Assembly: GCA_964505155.1 (NCBI GenBank)
Contig: CAZDGL010000004.1
Location: 4,110-68,109, forward strand
Direction of reading: 5' to 3'
From: an uncultured Candidatus Saccharibacteria bacterium
GTDB taxonomy: Bacteria > Patescibacteriota > Minisyncoccia > Phycocordibacterales > UBA9973
Length of the DNA: 64,000 bases
The translations under genes and the position numbers were made by a program. The notes beneath the pieces were generated by a model that made no database searches, was not told the origin of the DNA, and was given only the letters and a program-made list of their open reading frames with translations. This document shows positions 4,796 through 60,134 of the stretch, piece by piece (within the stretch, counting starts at the first letter, position 1; each line of letters opens with the position of its first letter).

Positions 4796-6616
4796 ATGGA
4801 AGAAAAAGAAACAAGAGATTCATTGAAGAGCATTTTCCAAACCTCAAAGAGAGCGTTTCTTTTTGGTTTTAAAAAAGAACCAGGTTTGATGACTATCAAC
4901 CTAGTGTTAAATATACTTTTAGCTGCACTCGTTTATGTACAGTTGTCGTCTTTCTCTAAGGTTGTTGATGAAATTATTTTTATAAAAGCTAATGGAGGAG
5001 TTTTAACAAAAGCCCTCCTTTATAATTCAATTATTCTTGGATTATCATTTTTAATTCCATCAGTATTACAAAATCTGCATAATAGATTTGCAGAAAATTT
5101 ACGTATGAAGTATGGGACACATGCTCAGTTACTCAGAGTAGATTCAATTTCAAAATTAGATGTAGGTACTATAGAAAGTACAGAATTTCAAACAAAAATA
5201 GAGAGAGCAGAACAGTGGGGTGTTGGCTGTCTCAACAACCTTACAATGCTTACTTTTAGTGTTATAAGAAATATAGCTTCAGTTATTACCTCCGCTGTTA
5301 TTCTGTATGTTATCAACCCTTGGCTTGTTTTACTGGCAGCTATTAGTGGTTTGCCTTTTTACTTCATACAAAAAAAATACGGTTTTCAGATTTATCGTTT
5401 GTATCATGATAGAACAGACGAGTCTAGAATTATGAGAGATAGAAACTCTTTTTTTAATGATAAGAAAAAAATAGTAGAAGTTATATTATTTAGCCTTGGT
5501 TTAAGATTTAGAAATGATATAGAACAAGCGAATGTATCGTTCGACAATAAAATACTCAATGTATTTCGTAAAAGATCAAATGTAACTTTTTTCTATGACT
5601 TTATAAGTGTTGCGTGTTTGTTGTTTGCTATCGCTCTTGTTACATTACAAACAATAAAAGGAGATATTTTGGTTGGTTCGCTTTTGCTTGCCTTCACTAC
5701 CTATAGGAGTTTTACTGCTGTTGTACAGGATTTTTATGCAAACATAACTCGTATGGAAGATCAATCTCGTTACTCTAAGAGATGGTTTGATGTCTTCGAT
5801 ACAAATCCTAAAATTTTAAATAGCAAAAATGCTATAAAACCAAATTGGCAGACTCCTCCAGTTATAGAATTTAAAAATGTTTCTTTTGCATACCCTGAAA
5901 CAGAAAAACAGGTTTTAAAAAATATTTCTTTCACTTTAAATACCGGAGAAAAACTCGCTGTTGTAGGAGAAAATGGCGCTGGAAAAACAACACTTATAAA
6001 ACTTTTATGCAGAGTATATGACCCAACAGAAGGAGAAATATTGATAGATGGTGTAAATCTTAAAGAAATAGATCTTGACCATTGGAGAAATTATTTAGGT
6101 GTTTTGTTTCAAGATTTTTCTAGTTTCCAAATGACAGTAAAAGAAGCTATTGCGATCTCTCGTCCAAATGAAAGGTTAGATGAAGAAAAAGTTAGATATG
6201 CGGCTGAAATGTCTGGAGCGGTAGACTTTATAGAAAATTTTCCTAAAAAATACGATCAACTTATTTGGAAAGGATTTCAAGATGGAGTAGAGCTTTCAAA
6301 AGGTCAGCACCAAAGAATGGCGGTGGCGCGTATCTTTTATCGTGATGCATTTATCTCTATACTCGACGAACCAACTTCTGCTATAGATGCAGTAGCAGAA
6401 GAGAAAATATTTGAAGTCCTTGAAAAGAAAATGGAAGGCAAAACAGTGATACTTATCTCGCACCGATTTAGTACAGTGAAAAATGCTGATCAAATAGCAG
6501 TCATAGAGCATGGAGAACTCAAAGAACTCGGTAGTCACAAGGATTTGATGGCAAAGAAGGGAAGATATGCAGAGCTCTATACTATGCAGGCGAGTAGGTA
6601 TTTGGAGAGTGAATAG
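4796..6616 (+). CDS. ABC transporter, fused permease and ATPase (exporter type)
   Basis: N-terminal 6-TM domain. Walker A GENGAGKTT, signature LSKGQHQR, Walker B ILDEPTSAID. No C39 peptidase domain. Confidence 0.8.
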   Translation: MEEKETRDSLKSIFQTSKRAFLFGFKKEPGLMTINLVLNILLAALVYVQLSSFSKVVDEIIFIKANGGVLTKALLYNSIILGLSFLIPSVLQNLHNRFAENLRMKYGTHAQLLRVDSISKLDVGTIESTEFQTKIERAEQWGVGCLNNLTMLTFSVIRNIASVITSAVILYVINPWLVLLAAISGLPFYFIQKKYGFQIYRLYHDRTDESRIMRDRNSFFNDKKKIVEVILFSLGLRFRNDIEQANVSFDNKILNVFRKRSNVTFFYDFISVACLLFAIALVTLQTIKGDILVGSLLLAFTTYRSFTAVVQDFYANITRMEDQSRYSKRWFDVFDTNPKILNSKNAIKPNWQTPPVIEFKNVSFAYPETEKQVLKNISFTLNTGEKLAVVGENGAGKTTLIKLLCRVYDPTEGEILIDGVNLKEIDLDHWRNYLGVLFQDFSSFQMTVKEAIAISRPNERLDEEKVRYAAEMSGAVDFIENFPKKYDQLIWKGFQDGVELSKGQHQRMAVARIFYRDAFISILDEPTSAIDAVAEEKIFEVLEKKMEGKTVILISHRFSTVKNADQIAVIEHGELKELGSHKDLMAKKGRYAELYTMQASRYLESE

Positions 6617-54951: not shown

Positions 54952-55269
54952 ATGATTACTTACTTTCAAATTTTAAAGGCGATAATTACTGCATTAATCT
55001 TCCCAGCTTTATTGATTTTTGGTTTGGCGGTTGTTTCTAAACCGATGAGCTCTATTAATACAAGAAATAAAGTTGTGTTGCACTTATATCTTAATTTAGC
55101 TCTATGCATAATAGGATTTTCAGGCATTATTTTAATACTTTTTAATCCATCTATTGCTATTTTTTCTTTTGGGCTAGCTCCTTTGTTCGCTATAATCTTT
55201 GTATTGGTTTCTTTGTCTAAGTTTAGGAAGCTAATAAATTATATACTTGATAAAAAAGATTTATTATGA
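54952..55269 (+). CDS. hypothetical membrane protein
   Basis: Three TM helices. Confidence 0.4.
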   Translation: MITYFQILKAIITALIFPALLIFGLAVVSKPMSSINTRNKVVLHLYLNLALCIIGFSGIILILFNPSIAIFSFGLAPLFAIIFVLVSLSKFRKLINYILDKKDLL

Positions 55270-55701: not shown

Positions 55702-56346
55702 ATGATATCTATTACTTTCGATGATGGCTGGAAAAATCAATTCACAAGAGCTTTGCCTGTACTTGAAAAGTATGATTTGAAAGGTACTTTTTATATTATT
55801 TCTAGGATGCCAAACTACATGCTTCATGAAGGTGAGGGTAGAATGTCTCAAGAAGAAATACTTGATCTGCAAAACAGGGGGCACGAGATAGGTGCTCATT
55901 CTCAAACACATCCACACCTGCAGATATCTATGCCATGGAAAGTTCGTAAAGAAGTTAGGGGCTCAAAGAAAGATTTGGAAAATAGAGGATTAAAAATAGA
56001 AACATTTTGCTATCCTTATGGTAGAAGAAACTGGTTTGTTGATAGGGTAGTAGCGAGTTCAGGATTTGCGGGAGCTAGACTGGCGGATGGAAAGTACAAT
56101 ACAAAGGCAACTGATAGATTTCATTTGGAAGCTAAATGCCTAAGAGATTTTACAACATTTGAAGAAGCAAAAATGTGGATAGACAATACTTACAATAAAT
56201 GGCTGATTTTAGTATTTCACCAGATTGAGCCAAATCCAGGAGGTTGGGGTACGGAACCTGTTTTGTTTGAAAAGATTTGTGCTTATATAAAAGAGAAAAA
56301 TTTAGAAGTTGTAACAGTTAGAGAAGGTTTAAAAAAGATATTATGA
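55702..56346 (+). CDS. polysaccharide deacetylase (NodB/CE4 domain)
   Basis: ISITFDDGWKNQ...HSQTHPHL. Confidence 0.75.
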   Translation: MISITFDDGWKNQFTRALPVLEKYDLKGTFYIISRMPNYMLHEGEGRMSQEEILDLQNRGHEIGAHSQTHPHLQISMPWKVRKEVRGSKKDLENRGLKIETFCYPYGRRNWFVDRVVASSGFAGARLADGKYNTKATDRFHLEAKCLRDFTTFEEAKMWIDNTYNKWLILVFHQIEPNPGGWGTEPVLFEKICAYIKEKNLEVVTVREGLKKIL

Positions 56347-57044: not shown

Positions 57045-57917
57045 ATGAAAAATAAAATCGGCACTTATACAACTAGAGAGCTCGCTATCAAAGCCAATGA
57101 AATCCGTGAGAGCATCATAGAAATGCTTTTGGAAGCTGGTTCAGGGCATACTGCGGGACCTCTCGGAATGGCAGATGTTTTCACTGCACTTTATTTTGAT
57201 TTGCTTCGCCATGATCCAGAGCGTCCAGATTGGGCAGAGCGCGATAGACTAGTGCTTTCAAATGGACATATCAACCCTGTGCTTTACGCTACTATGGCGC
57301 ACGTCGGTTATTTTCCTATAGAAGAACTCAAAACTCTTCGCAAATTTGGAACACGACTTCAAGGGCACCCTCATCGAGAGTTTTTGCCATATCTTGAAAA
57401 CTCTTCTGGACCTCTCGGTTCGGGTCTTTCGCAGGCAGTCGGTATGGCGCTTGCAGATAGGATAGATAATGGAGTCACAACACAGAAATACTTTTATTGT
57501 TTACTTGGAGACGGAGAGCTCAATGAAGGCAACAACTGGGAAGCTGTCATGCTCGCTGGCAAAGAAAAACTGCGCAACCTCATAGCGATAGTAGATAGAA
57601 ACAACATTCAGATAGACGGTTATACTGAAGATGTGATGCCACTAGACTCTCTGACTTCCAAATGGGAAGCGTTCAACTGGCATGTACAAGAAATAGACGG
57701 TCACAATATTGAAGCTATAATCGATGCGGTTCACAAAGCCAAAGCCGTGTTTGAAAAGCCTTCTGTCATCATCGCCCGCACTATTCCTGGCAAAGGCGTT
57801 CGAGAGTTTGAACGTAAGTTTGAATGGCACGGCAAGGCTCCAAACAAAGAAGAAGCAAATATGGCGCTTCAGGAACTGAGAACATTGGGAGGTAAAATTA
57901 AGAGTGAGCATAACTAA
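57045..57917 (+). CDS. transketolase, N-terminal (TPP-binding) subunit
   Basis: GSGHTAGPLGMADVF...GDGELNEGNNWEA. Ends LGGKIKSEHN. Confidence 0.85.
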   Translation: MKNKIGTYTTRELAIKANEIRESIIEMLLEAGSGHTAGPLGMADVFTALYFDLLRHDPERPDWAERDRLVLSNGHINPVLYATMAHVGYFPIEELKTLRKFGTRLQGHPHREFLPYLENSSGPLGSGLSQAVGMALADRIDNGVTTQKYFYCLLGDGELNEGNNWEAVMLAGKEKLRNLIAIVDRNNIQIDGYTEDVMPLDSLTSKWEAFNWHVQEIDGHNIEAIIDAVHKAKAVFEKPSVIIARTIPGKGVREFERKFEWHGKAPNKEEANMALQELRTLGGKIKSEHN

Positions 57918-57919
57918 AC

Positions 57920-58117
57920 ATGACTAAAATAATATTTGCTTTTATAATTGGGCTACTTCTCATATTTTTTGGTTATCGTACATATAGCATGTCTTATACT
58001 AGTAAATTTTTTACGTCTTTTACTAAAAAATTTCTTAGCGTAGTAATGTTTTTTGTAGGGTTATTAATTCTTGTGGTGATTTACTATGGATATAAATTAT
58101 TAAGCGGATTTGCATAA
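57920..58117 (+). CDS. tiny 2-TM membrane protein (65 aa), AT-rich islet gene 1
   Basis: Hydrophobic ORF about 25-30 percent GC, placed 2 nt after the tkt N-subunit stop. Confidence 0.4.
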   Translation: MTKIIFAFIIGLLLIFFGYRTYSMSYTSKFFTSFTKKFLSVVMFFVGLLILVVIYYGYKLLSGFA

Positions 58118-58122
58118 TTAGT

Positions 58123-58392
58123 ATGAAAAATATAGATTGGGCAAAAACAATAGGTAGATTAGTAATAGTAGTGTTTGGACTAGCCACCATCTTTTTTGGC
58201 GTAGGAATCTATGCCTTTGGTGTTACTTTTGGGAGTGTAAGTAATTTAAAAATTTTTCTTACTCTAGTCCCACTATTCTTATCTGGCTGTGTAATGATCT
58301 TTTTAAATAATATCTCTAAAGGAAAGAATTGGATTTGGGTAACAATAAGTTTTTTTGTTTTATTAGCATATTTTATTATGTTTAATAATTAA
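58123..58392 (+). CDS. tiny 3-TM membrane protein (89 aa), islet gene 2
   Basis: Hydrophobic ORF tightly packed after gene 1. Confidence 0.4.
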   Translation: MKNIDWAKTIGRLVIVVFGLATIFFGVGIYAFGVTFGSVSNLKIFLTLVPLFLSGCVMIFLNNISKGKNWIWVTISFFVLLAYFIMFNN

Positions 58393-58395
58393 TAT

Positions 58396-58686
58396 ATGAG
58401 AAATAGACCTAGCATTTTCTTCTTAACTGTCACAGCTATTAGTCTTTTTGTATATATTAAATATTTATCAGCCTCTTTTTCTTTTCCTGCTCGTGCAGTT
58501 GGATTTTTAGGATTTTTTGGCTTACCCGCATCCTTTTTTTGGTTGGGAATAAGTTTATTTATACAAGGTAAGAAGATGCAAAACCGTAAAAATCAGTCTA
58601 TTGGGGTAGGACTAATTGTTATTGGGCTAATCACTTCAATGATTGTAGTCGGATGGACAATTCTTGCTTTTAGTGATTGGCAGTAA
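58396..58686 (+). CDS. tiny 3-TM membrane protein (96 aa), islet gene 3
   Basis: Hydrophobic ORF. Confidence 0.4.
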   Translation: MRNRPSIFFLTVTAISLFVYIKYLSASFSFPARAVGFLGFFGLPASFFWLGISLFIQGKKMQNRKNQSIGVGLIVIGLITSMIVVGWTILAFSDWQ

Positions 58687-58693
58687 TAAATAT

Positions 58694-58789
58694 ATGTTAA
58701 ATCCTAATTTAAAACTAAATAACAAAATTTTCTCAGACGATTGCGAATTAATAGTATTAGGAGGTAAAATTAAGAGTGAACATAATTAG
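58694..58789 (+). repeat. duplicated transketolase junction: copy of the tktC 5' end (54 bp) fused in frame to a copy of the tktN 3' end (about 33 bp)
   Basis: 58694-58747 matches 59014-59067 with 2 synonymous mismatches. 58757-58789 matches 57885-57917 with 3 synonymous mismatches. The fusion reads as a 31-codon chimeric ORF MLNPNLKLNNKIFSDDCE-LIV-LGGKIKSEHN. Confidence 0.7.
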
Positions 58790-58790
58790 T

Positions 58791-59021
58791 ATGAAATATT
58801 TAAAGATATCTTTACAAATAGTTCTTGGGTTAGCAATTGTTATTTTTTCTGTAAAAGAAAGCGCTTATACAATGAAAGCTTTTTCTCTTATTTGGGGTAC
58901 TCAACATACTGGGTTTTTTATTATATATCTAGTCCTCATTCCTATTTATTGGATAATCGGTTTATTTCTTATTAATCTTGGTATGAGAAATTTATCTAAA
59001 ATAAAAAAACAAAATGCTTAA
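58791..59021 (+). CDS. tiny membrane protein (76 aa), islet gene 4
   Basis: Hydrophobic ORF. Its stop overlaps the tkt C-subunit ATG. Confidence 0.4.
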   Translation: MKYLKISLQIVLGLAIVIFSVKESAYTMKAFSLIWGTQHTGFFIIYLVLIPIYWIIGLFLINLGMRNLSKIKKQNA

Positions 59022-60006
59022 TCCTAATTTAAAACTAAATAACAAAATTTTCTCAGACGACTGCGAACAAGCACCGATCCGCAAAGGCTTTGGTGAGGGC
59101 TTGGTGGAAGCGGGGGAAAGTAATAAAGACATCGTTGCTCTTTCGGCAGATCTGACAGAAAGTACGCAAATGCATTTATTCAAAAATCGTTTTCCAGAGA
59201 GGTTTGTCGAGATCGGTGTAGCAGAACAAAATCTTGCAACAGTTGCGAGCGGTATGAGTGCTATGGGTAAGTATCCATTTTTCTCTTCCTATGCGATGTT
59301 CTCTCCAGGTCGCAACTGGGAGCAAATCCGCACCACTCTTGCATACAACGATAGAAAGGCAGTTATCGTGGGCTCTCATGCTGGTGTATCTGTAGGACCA
59401 GATGGCGGTACACACCAAGCCATAGAAGACATCGCTCTTATGAGGGTTATCCCGCGCATGATGGTACTTTCACCTTGCGATAGCCTACAAGCCAAGAAAA
59501 TGACCCTAGCACTTGCGCAGGCTCCAGAGCTGGCATATCTACGACTCGCTAGAGAAAAGACGCCTATCATCACCAGTTATGATACCCCTCTTGAACTCGG
59601 AAAGGGGCAAGTTCTCTACAGACCAGAAGGTGTGGCACATGTGGCTATCATTGCTACTGGTGCATTGGTAGCCAATGCTCTTCGCGTTGCCAAAGACTTG
59701 GAAAAGAAACATATCAAGGTAGTGGTAGTAAATATTCACACCATTAAACCACTAGATGAAGAGCTCATCATCAAAGTTGCCAAAGAAACAAAAGCAGTCG
59801 TAACTGTAGAGGAACATCAAGTAGTGGGTGGACTTGGAGGAGCAGTAGCTGAATGTTTGGCAAAAAGTTGTCCAACACCGATAGAGTTTGTAGGAGTTCA
59901 AGACCTCTTTGGTCAGTCTGGTACACCACGTGAACTCATTGAGCATTATGGAATGGGACGAGATGGGATTGAGAAGGCGATTTTAAAAGTTATAGATAGA
60001 AAGTAG
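59014..60006 (+). CDS. transketolase, C-terminal (pyrimidine-binding) subunit
   Basis: IGVAEQNLATVASGMSAMGKYPFFSSYAMF. Confidence 0.85.
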   Translation: MLNPNLKLNNKIFSDDCEQAPIRKGFGEGLVEAGESNKDIVALSADLTESTQMHLFKNRFPERFVEIGVAEQNLATVASGMSAMGKYPFFSSYAMFSPGRNWEQIRTTLAYNDRKAVIVGSHAGVSVGPDGGTHQAIEDIALMRVIPRMMVLSPCDSLQAKKMTLALAQAPELAYLRLAREKTPIITSYDTPLELGKGQVLYRPEGVAHVAIIATGALVANALRVAKDLEKKHIKVVVVNIHTIKPLDEELIIKVAKETKAVVTVEEHQVVGGLGGAVAECLAKSCPTPIEFVGVQDLFGQSGTPRELIEHYGMGRDGIEKAILKVIDRK

Positions 60007-60017
60007 ATAGATAAAAT

Positions 60018-60122
60018 AAAAAATACACATATCATTTTAAAGTCGCGTATTCGCCTGATGGCGAATCGCTGATACTCAGACCAGTCGTCTTGCGTAACAC
60101 CCTAAAATGATATGTGTATTTT
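60018..60122. terminator. long inverted-repeat structure (23-bp perfect arms around a 57-nt GC-richer, internally structured spacer); probably a bidirectional terminator, possibly a structured RNA
   Basis: aaaaaatacacatatcattttaa ... ttaaaatgatatgtgtatttttt, with an inner hairpin gcgtattcgcc-tgat-ggcgaatcgc. Lies between convergent genes. Confidence 0.5.
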
Positions 60123-60134
60123 TTTTATTACCTT

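Follow-up and report, generated by a model that had tools for sequence, protein, structure and literature searches.

Introduction

Hotspots of horizontal gene transfer (HGT) that lie between core genes and contain no mobile-element genes have been described in bacterial genomes (Oliveira et al. 2017, Nat Commun, PMC5635113). Another variable type of locus is the array of orphan type VI secretion system (T6SS) effector-immunity modules in Vibrio cholerae (Kirchberger et al. 2017, PMC5361080). For these arrays, frequent homologous replacement combined with rare stacking by homology-facilitated illegitimate recombination was proposed (PMC5361080). Homology-facilitated illegitimate recombination in natural transformation was reported by de Vries & Wackernagel 2002 and Prudhomme et al. 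2002, both as cited in PMC5361080. In this study, we analysed the junction between tktN and tktC, the adjacent genes for the two subunits of a split transketolase, in a stretch of 64,000 nucleotides from contig CAZDGL010000004.1 of assembly GCA_964505155.1 (hereafter the window; coordinates refer to its first letter as position 1).

The genomes of bacteria of the candidate phyla radiation (CPR) are tiny, and a large unexplained part of what they encode consists of small hypothetical membrane proteins that vary between strains. An initial annotation of the window, made from the sequence alone, noted an AT-rich islet of small membrane-type genes between tktN and tktC and considered the repeat pattern in it to fit unequal recombination between two alleles. 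Here, we compare this junction within the species and among related species. Our results suggest that the tktN-tktC junction is probably a recombination-driven slot for accessory genes in a conserved sugar-phosphate operon of Paceibacteria, with the ends of the tkt genes serving as homology anchors.

Results

In the window, tktN (57045..57917, plus strand) encodes the N-terminal, thiamine-diphosphate binding subunit (Pfam Transketolase_N, PF00456, 1e-64), and tktC (59014..60006, plus strand) encodes the C-terminal subunit (Transket_pyr, PF02779, 1e-35; Transketolase_C, PF02780, 3e-28). The spacer between them (57918-59013) is 1096 bp long with a GC content of 28% overall; along the spacer, GC amounts to 25-33%, compared to 40-50% in the flanks. 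It contains four small open reading frames (ORFs), all on the plus strand and designated g1 to g4. Hydropathy analysis showed two hydrophobic segments each in g1 (57920-58117, 65 amino acids) and g4 (58791-59021, 76 amino acids) and three each in g2 (58123-58392, 89 amino acids) and g3 (58396-58686, 96 amino acids). Spacing in the array is tight, with 1-7 nt between neighbouring genes or an overlap: g4 starts 1 nt past the stop codon of the scar described below, and its 3' end overlaps the start of tktC by 8 nt. The ORFs, GC content and hydropathy agree with the four small membrane-type ORFs of the initial annotation. Rfam models detected a single tRNA in the window and nothing inside the islet.

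Downstream of g3 there is a 96-nt chimeric ORF (58694-58789, plus strand) of 31 amino acids, hereafter called the scar. Its head part (58694-58747) is a 54-nt copy of the first 54 nt of tktC (59014-59067; repeat D1), and its tail part (58757-58789) is a 33-nt copy of the final 33 nt of tktN (57885-57917; repeat D2), a tail (ELRTLGGKIKSEH) that is kept in 80/80 relatives. Head and tail are connected in frame by a 9-nt linker, TTAATAGTA (58748-58756). Alignments of the copies scored far above those of shuffled sequences (z = 29 and z = 18), and the two head copies share an identical 41-nt core (58700-58740 = 59020-59060). Repeats and alignments both confirmed the chimeric element at the position and with the composition first reported.

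The scar copies differ from the functional gene ends at 7 nt in 6 codons, and every difference is synonymous (CTT/TTA, GAC/GAT, TTG/TTA, GAG/GAA, AAC/AAT and TAA/TAG). The initial annotation had recognized the synonymous pattern but counted only five mismatches. For random substitutions in these copies the chance rate of synonymous changes is ~18%, giving P ~3e-5. Because the differences are synonymous only, the inner head and tail copies had diverged while they belonged to working genes. When the tail copy is stretched to 45 nt, it takes in two non-synonymous codons that change RT to IV. RT is invariant at this position in all relatives, so the joint of the scar is located at or near the linker.

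A second trace of the tktN tail was found at the g1/g2 junction (58088-58125, plus strand), where a decayed remnant overlaps the 3' end of g1. The remnant, the scar and the real tktN tail of the same-species contig L085 all end with CATAATTAG T ATG. Its gapped local alignment score (34-37) was reached by 0/300 shuffles. A 16-mer of the remnant, CATAATTAGTATGAAA, has an exact match at the scar/g4 junction (58781-58796); ~0.01 such matches would be expected by chance in the window.

By looking up identical proteins and scanning metagenomes once for the head core, we collected further records of this species, with flanks 95-100% identical to the window. Including the window, four alleles of the tktN-tktC junction were found in this one species, at a nucleotide identity of 95-97%. 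Allele 1, that of the window, consists of g1-g3, the scar and g4; L082 and L083, two Logan contigs without any difference from the window, end inside the 41-nt core, at the equivalent of window position 58729. In allele 2 (L081, 99.9% identical), g2-g3 are followed directly by tktC with a hybrid head (ATGTTA...GAC), and the 320-bp unit of tail, g4 and head is missing. Allele 3 (L084 and L086, 100% identical to each other) has tktN-g1-g2-g3, a second scar (MLNPNLKLNNKIFSDDCEQ fused to RTSGGKINGEYN and a stop codon), g5 for a 115-aa membrane protein, a coiled-coil gene and tktC. Allele 4 (L085) has tktN, TMx for a 67-aa membrane protein, the coiled-coil gene and tktC. The left end of L081 corresponds to window position 58084, 4 nt ahead of the decayed tail remnant; it may reflect a further branch in the sample, such as an allele without g1, or low coverage.

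The gene ends of these alleles indicated the source of the inner copies. The inner tail of the window (...GAACATAATTAG T ATG) is one base off the real tktN tail of L085 (...GAGCATAATTAG T ATG), and the window's own tktN tail differs from it (...AACTAA AC ATG). With the synonymous-only differences and this near-identical real tail, the inner copies came from a diverged functional allele, as initially proposed, and not from a duplication in situ. Elsewhere, two types of tktC head are found: ATGTTA-core-GAC (L081 and the inner head of L086) and xTGCTT-core-GAT (L085 and the outer head of L086). The window has ATGTTA-core-GAT as the inner head and ATGCTT-core-GAC as the outer head. A single crossover in the 41-nt core would produce just such heads as its reciprocal products.

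We further compared the divergence of the window from L086 along the locus. The g1-g3 block showed 5 single-nucleotide polymorphisms (SNPs) in 743 nt, compared to 98 in 2480 nt of the flanks (51/1575 nt in rpe/tktN and 47/905 nt in tktC; Poisson P = 4e-8), and divergence at synonymous sites was 1.8% in g1-g3 versus 13% in the flanks. Because it is ~six times less diverged than its flanks, the g1-g3 block was exchanged or homogenised recently. Its breakpoints are positioned close to the tktN tail on one side and within the 3' end of g3 on the other.

At the 3' end of g3 (58668-58692), the window and L086 differ at 6 of 25 nt, so that the encoded proteins end with AFSDWQ and AFNDSY, respectively. 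This density of SNPs far exceeds the ~4% divergence of the flanks, and the segment directly borders the g1-g3 block, which is nearly identical in both. A breakpoint of recombination, at which the ends of older and diverged alleles were joined, is probably located here.

The scars of the window and L086 are both exactly 96 nt long, in the same register and positioned directly after g3, but differ at 7 of 12 central nucleotides; the tail of the L086 scar bears four amino-acid changes. One old joint may have been inherited by both alleles, with later recombination in the stubs swapping the downstream cassette and 'refreshing' the stubs of the window. The initial annotation had proposed two parental alleles, one with g1-g3 and the other with g4. 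An allele in which g2-g3 precede tktC was indeed found (L081). A joint that is old and inherited would not have been made in the event that brought in g4.

To place the junction in a wider context, we scanned for TktN with one genome per species and obtained 80 loci; gaps were counted on 78 species representatives. All loci (80/80) come from metagenome-assembled genomes of Paceibacteria (Parcubacteria, Nomurabacteria-like CPR). Separate tktN and tktC genes are common to 80/80 relatives, and the split of the transketolase is ancestral. The synteny gatB-like, GAPDH, ..., rpe, tktN, tktC, pfkB (reverse), fba, FAD oxidase is conserved in the 80 loci. The tktN-tktC gap is 1-5 nt in ~30 genomes, typically TAR-N-ATG, and no more than 30 nt in 38% (n=78); in 'empty' genomes 1 nt separates the tktN stop codon from the tktC ATG. 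Gaps of more than 150 nt are present in 45 genomes (58% of 78), with inserts of ~200-1900 bp (maximum 1896 nt). ORFs cover 0.92 of these 45 inserts on the plus strand versus 0.34 on the minus strand. GC content is 0.333 in the inserts versus 0.450, and was lower in 45/45. In 36/44, the stop codon of the final cassette is found between -20 and +11 nt relative to the tktC ATG.

The content of the slot varies greatly. DUF1653 genes were found in ~18 loci and a family of ~90-aa coiled-coil proteins in 9; other inserts encode NUDIX proteins, 23S_rRNA_IVP four-helix-bundle proteins, PemK/MazF, a RelB+YafQ pair, three MazG-like proteins, HD_3, pyrophosphatase and many singleton (orphan) membrane proteins. 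The nearest species (93% TktN identity) have a NUDIX or a DUF1653 gene in the slot and none of g1-g4. In L087 (2315-3084; likewise in L088-L092; TktN 90.6% identical) the slot carries a g3-like gene, a g2-like gene and DUF1653, so that the order of g2 and g3 is swapped relative to the window. Amino-acid identities between L087 and the window are 67% for g2 and 45% for g3, compared to 91% for TktN and 86% for TktC. Such a comparison of related genomes had been suggested in the initial annotation; it yielded alternative cassette contents and no uniform arrangement. The supposed hotspot is thus variable both across 78 species and within one species, but its content is not restricted to membrane proteins.

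In other species, most junctions that hold an insert are free of scars, and nucleotide and peptide scans of the 80 species loci detected no further self-junction duplications outside the window's own species. By eye, we spotted and then checked two foreign tktC heads: one of 22 nt joined in frame to DUF1653 in L012, and a remnant of 60 nt in L065. Behind the latter, ~115 nt are unusually GC-rich (GCCGGAGCGCGACGGCGCGAGGTGGGGTCGC...; L065 7565-7740), and the rest of that insert has 27% GC. L012 also appears, by eye and with the similarity unscored, to have a homologue of g5 at the same slot. Our literature searches returned no paper that describes a hotspot at the tkt junction of CPR bacteria; a paper on 'hypervariation' in Gracilibacteria deals with a repeat protein and has no relation to this locus.

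Two of the four small ORFs have relatives elsewhere. The sole homologue of g2 (66-67% identity) is located at the tkt junction of another species (L087-L092). For g3, a search of 1.84 billion representatives, with its own cluster representative excluded, returned one credible homologue (48% identity, 92 aa) and one repetitive match of 474 aa; in L087, a 92-aa ORF that is 45% identical to g3 lies between tktN and the g2-like gene. The dN/dS values of g2 (0.38) and g3 (0.35) indicate that both are real, though fast-evolving, coding genes. In contrast, g1 and g4 are orphans. The sole match of g1 among 5.8 billion proteins was g1 itself, which is identical in the same-species contigs L084 and L086. 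For g4, the protein database returned only g4; exact-protein look-up found no other contig with g4 (76-aa and 81-aa versions) or the scar ORF, and a scan of viral contigs for the scar joint gave no match.

All Pfam matches of g1-g4 were below threshold, and no usable family match was found in Pfam, PHROGs or PADLOC for g1-g4, g5, TMx, TM105 or the coiled-coil protein, the last of which matched a PHROGs 'holin' at 0.005 only. None of g1-g4 matched a holin, superinfection-exclusion or bacteriocin-immunity family, and the ORF list showed no adjacent lysin or toxin gene. The functions suggested initially (immunity-like, holin-like or membrane stress proteins) found no support in these databases. 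As a tentative best guess, with rather low confidence, g1-g4 might be strain-specific envelope proteins for exclusion of phages or competitors, or for host contact.

Other junctions of the same operon are variable as well. Extra DNA of more than 150 nt was found between rpe and tktN in 8% of the genomes, between fba and fad in 20%, between pfkB and fba in 25%, between the gatB-like gene and GAPDH in 51%, between tktN and tktC in 58%, and between tktC and pfkB in 79%. DUF1653, IVP and PemK genes occupy different junctions in different genomes.

In the window, ~10 kb around the locus encode GAPDH, RpiB, deacetylase, Rpe, Tkt, PfkB, FBA and FAD oxidase. Between GAPDH and rpiB (54952-55266) there is an AT-rich ORF of 105 aa with several hydrophobic stretches. 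It is missing in the same-species L086, in which GAPDH is directly followed by rpiB, and L002 has a 52%-identical homologue at the same junction; this gap looks like another strain-variable slot for small genes. A polysaccharide deacetylase gene (55702-56346) lies between rpiB and rpe. This gene is missing in the same-species L085 and L086, where the rpiB-rpe gap is 4 nt. The deacetylase gene and the displaced rpe share the initial ATGATA, which may represent microhomology at the boundary of the insertion. L085 contains a 139-aa ORF (5869-6288) between tktC and pfkB that the window lacks.

Between the convergent genes tktC and pfkB, the window has a 22-bp perfect inverted repeat (AAAAAATACACATATCATTTTA / TAAAATGATATGTGTATTTTTT; 60019-60128) enclosing ~66 nt with two inner hairpins. 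The predicted RNA fold has an energy of -44.2 kcal/mol (z = -9.2); the best Rfam matches are far below gathering scores, and the arm is unique in the window. It might act as a terminator in both directions or represent a small palindromic element.

Discussion

The data presented above are best accounted for by a slot between tktN and tktC that is filled and emptied by recombination anchored in the gene ends, and we consider this interpretation likely. Small passengers, AT-richer than their surroundings, occupy the gap in this constitutively required operon, always co-oriented, abutting tktC and without an evident promoter or terminator of their own. They would be transcribed from the operon promoter, and a chain of coupled translation would still bring ribosomes to tktC; selection would keep the passengers co-oriented and tightly abutted, so that expression of tktC is retained. 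Most exchanges would take place by ordinary homologous recombination, as scar-free double crossovers in the 3' end of tktN and the 5' end of tktC. Occasionally, an illegitimate or unequal joint would stack two alleles in tandem and leave an in-frame head-tail scar.

On this model the array of the window would comprise at least three layers: g1; the decayed tail remnant with g2-g3; and the head-tail scar with g4. Via a crossover in the head core, a unit of tail, g4 and head may have been integrated, or two scar-bearing arrays may have been swapped. The direct repeats would also permit loss of the unit, which could have given rise to the g2-g3-tktC allele of L081. The data show the anatomy of the junction, its diversity of alleles, the foreign source of the inner copies and the recent exchange of g1-g3; we infer the order of events, co-transcription and translational coupling. 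The DNA probably entered by natural transformation. Genes for competence and for type IV pili are widespread among CPR bacteria, which makes natural transformation plausible.

Several observations weigh against this interpretation or narrow it. Because other junctions of the operon are equally variable, with tktC-pfkB and gatB-like-GAPDH no less so than tktN-tktC, the tkt junction is one slot among several, and the claim that it is a hotspot does not hold in the sense of a unique one. Among the 78 species representatives, the window alone duplicates its own junction at the nucleotide level (1 of 78), so stacking with scars is rare. Both g4 and the scar joint are recorded solely in the source assembly, and no allele with g4 alone is on record. 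L081 is a k=31 Logan contig that runs through the 41-nt exact repeat, and graph simplification might conceivably explain the missing g4. Since L084 and L086 are identical and possibly derived from one sample, the second scar may have one independent witness. Instead of one inherited joint, two independent in-frame joints under in-frame constraint are possible. Finally, a scan for promoters and terminators gave sites at chance level and has no bearing on co-transcription.

A farther-reaching possibility, which we consider unlikely, is a recombinase-independent, integron-like economy of cassettes in CPR/Paceibacteria, in which modules of tktN tail, small ORF and tktC head circulate. Ordinary recombination would stack and drop the modules at translationally coupled slots in essential core operons. 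New small membrane proteins would be born there from scars and AT-rich filler, making the slots cradles for such proteins, and the constant 96-nt in-frame scar would be more than a footprint, namely a functional adaptor by which the coupling chain stays unbroken. Two cases point to such gene birth: the C-terminus of g1 is located on the decayed tkt tail, and the N-terminus of the L012 DUF1653 protein is derived from a tktC head.

The same two cases would also suit an origin in situ, by local tandem duplication of the junction and subsequent divergence, with hydrophobic ORFs arising de novo from an AT-rich spacer and no transfer of alleles. T-rich DNA easily encodes hydrophobic peptides, and g1 and g4 have no homologues. 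We regard this scheme as quite improbable. The synonymous-only differences indicate that the inner copies diverged while functional, and the inner tail and head variants were found as functional ends of other alleles of the same species. In addition, the same slot of another species holds diverged homologues of g2 and g3 that are under purifying selection, many cassettes of the relatives encode established domain families, and the flanks of the g1-g3 block are far older than the block itself.

There is very little to recommend a site-specific system of the integron type, in which a distant recombinase would read the joint of tktC head and tktN tail as an att-like site and move circles of tail, ORF and head. 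It would explain that the cassettes are co-oriented, packed and without evident promoters of their own, that both scars have the same length and register, and that a unit between 54-nt direct repeats is missing in L081; the reciprocal head SNPs would fit the integration of a circle by a single crossover. However, a RecA-type crossover in the 41-nt identical core suffices. No integrase or transposase is encoded within ~5 kb of the array, and no recombinase that would point to IntI/attI was found among the genes flanking it. The five cassette ends showed no structured attC-like element: their single-stranded DNA folding gave z values of -1.95 to +0.77 relative to shuffles, and inverted repeats were limited to weak, AT-rich ones. 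Most occupied junctions elsewhere are scar-free, and the extent of the stubs varies, from 22 nt in L012 and 60 nt in L065 to 54-57 nt in the species of the window. We likewise found no terminal inverted repeats around the islet or its units and no transposase ORF that would indicate an insertion sequence (IS), a miniature inverted-repeat transposable element or a transposon; what is repeated directly is coding sequence, in copies of 33-54 nt.

A purely vertical history, with differential loss from a long ancestral array and no horizontal exchange, is no more credible. DUF1653 and the coiled-coil gene are found beside tktC widely across the clade, which looks like an ancestral state, and the coiled-coil gene and tktC diverge as the flanks do between L085 and L086 (96% identity). 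But vertical descent does not account for a g1-g3 block ~six times less diverged than its flanks (P = 4e-8) or for stubs that come from allele types unlike the resident gene. The order of g2 and g3 is inverted in L087, the same families are found at different junctions in different genomes, and none of the window's cassettes is present in its closest relatives.

Least probable of all is an assembly chimera joining two co-occurring strains through the 41-nt head core, so that g1-g3 and scar-g4 would not lie in cis: L082 and L083 end inside the repeat core, L081 skips g4, and g4 and the scar joint lack a second record, but the joint of head, linker and tail has sequence present in neither tkt gene and must exist in the reads, a homologous scar was assembled after g3 in L084/L086 and is thus real in the species, the 5' SNPs of the inner head (ATGTTA) are contiguous with g3 in all records, and a repeat of 41-54 nt is shorter than typical reads and than the large k of modern metagenome assemblers. 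We rejected an intron, intein or IS interrupting tkt because the split is ancestral and ~30 species have an empty junction, and we rejected the remnant of a prophage for want of phage genes.

The recombination-driven slot favoured here gives a nucleotide-resolution view of how small genes are gained, stacked, swapped and lost without mobile-element machinery. The passengers ride in an operon of central metabolism, and an essential gene pair would offer its conserved ends as handles for recombination. Amplification from tktN to tktC could provide a marker for strain typing. The alleles also constitute a natural experiment in which polarity and the translational coupling of enzyme subunits can be studied, and the passengers a defined set of fast-turnover genes in which roles in phage defence or host interaction can be tested. 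The initial annotation was largely right about this locus, although too narrow on the content of the slot and too specific on its two-allele history.

Among known systems, the junction comes closest in concept to the HGT hotspots of PMC5635113. It is an interval between core genes with rapid turnover, a GC content below that of the flanks, no integrase and an exchange attributed to homologous recombination in the flanks. Turnover between the syntenic core genes is high (gaps of 1-1896 nt, 58% of 78 occupied, four intraspecific alleles), no mobile element is found in ~10 kb around the locus, and divergence along the locus is non-uniform. Unlike those hotspots, the tkt slot is miniature (0.2-1.9 kb), intra-operonic and located between the subunit genes of one enzyme; its passengers, strictly co-oriented, lie directly against the downstream subunit gene, and head and tail stubs are kept in the array.

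Integrons share with this locus short, co-oriented and mostly promoterless ORFs behind an upstream promoter, presence/absence polymorphism and a repeat-flanked unit that could leave as a circle. They differ in that no IntI was found nearby, there are no attC hairpins and no attI, and the repeats are copies of flanking coding sequence. Homology-facilitated illegitimate recombination, as far as it is outlined in PMC5361080, combines one homologous anchor with one illegitimate joint that has little or no microhomology, and insertions can duplicate short targets. On that outline, the L086 joint (~1 nt of microhomology) and the L012 fusion (AAAC microhomology) are both consistent with it. Unlike a fresh illegitimate joint, the reciprocal heads of the window better fit a homologous crossover in the repeat; transformation in this organism would have to be assumed.

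Another close parallel is with the orphan arrays of T6SS, Rhs and contact-dependent inhibition (CDI) systems, in which a conserved segment anchors new modules, older ones are displaced and anchor stubs precede them. Anchor stubs are present here as the scar of the window, the tail remnant, the L086 scar and the head stubs of L012 and L065. In contrast to those arrays, the anchors are the tail and head of the housekeeping genes tktN and tktC, not a toxin gene, and stubs of both flanks are fused in frame. No pairing of toxin and immunity genes is evident for g1-g4, which match no such family in Pfam, PHROGs or PADLOC. Clearly, the locus is an example of known genome plasticity, a recombination hotspot combined with a displacement array, rather than a new kind of system.

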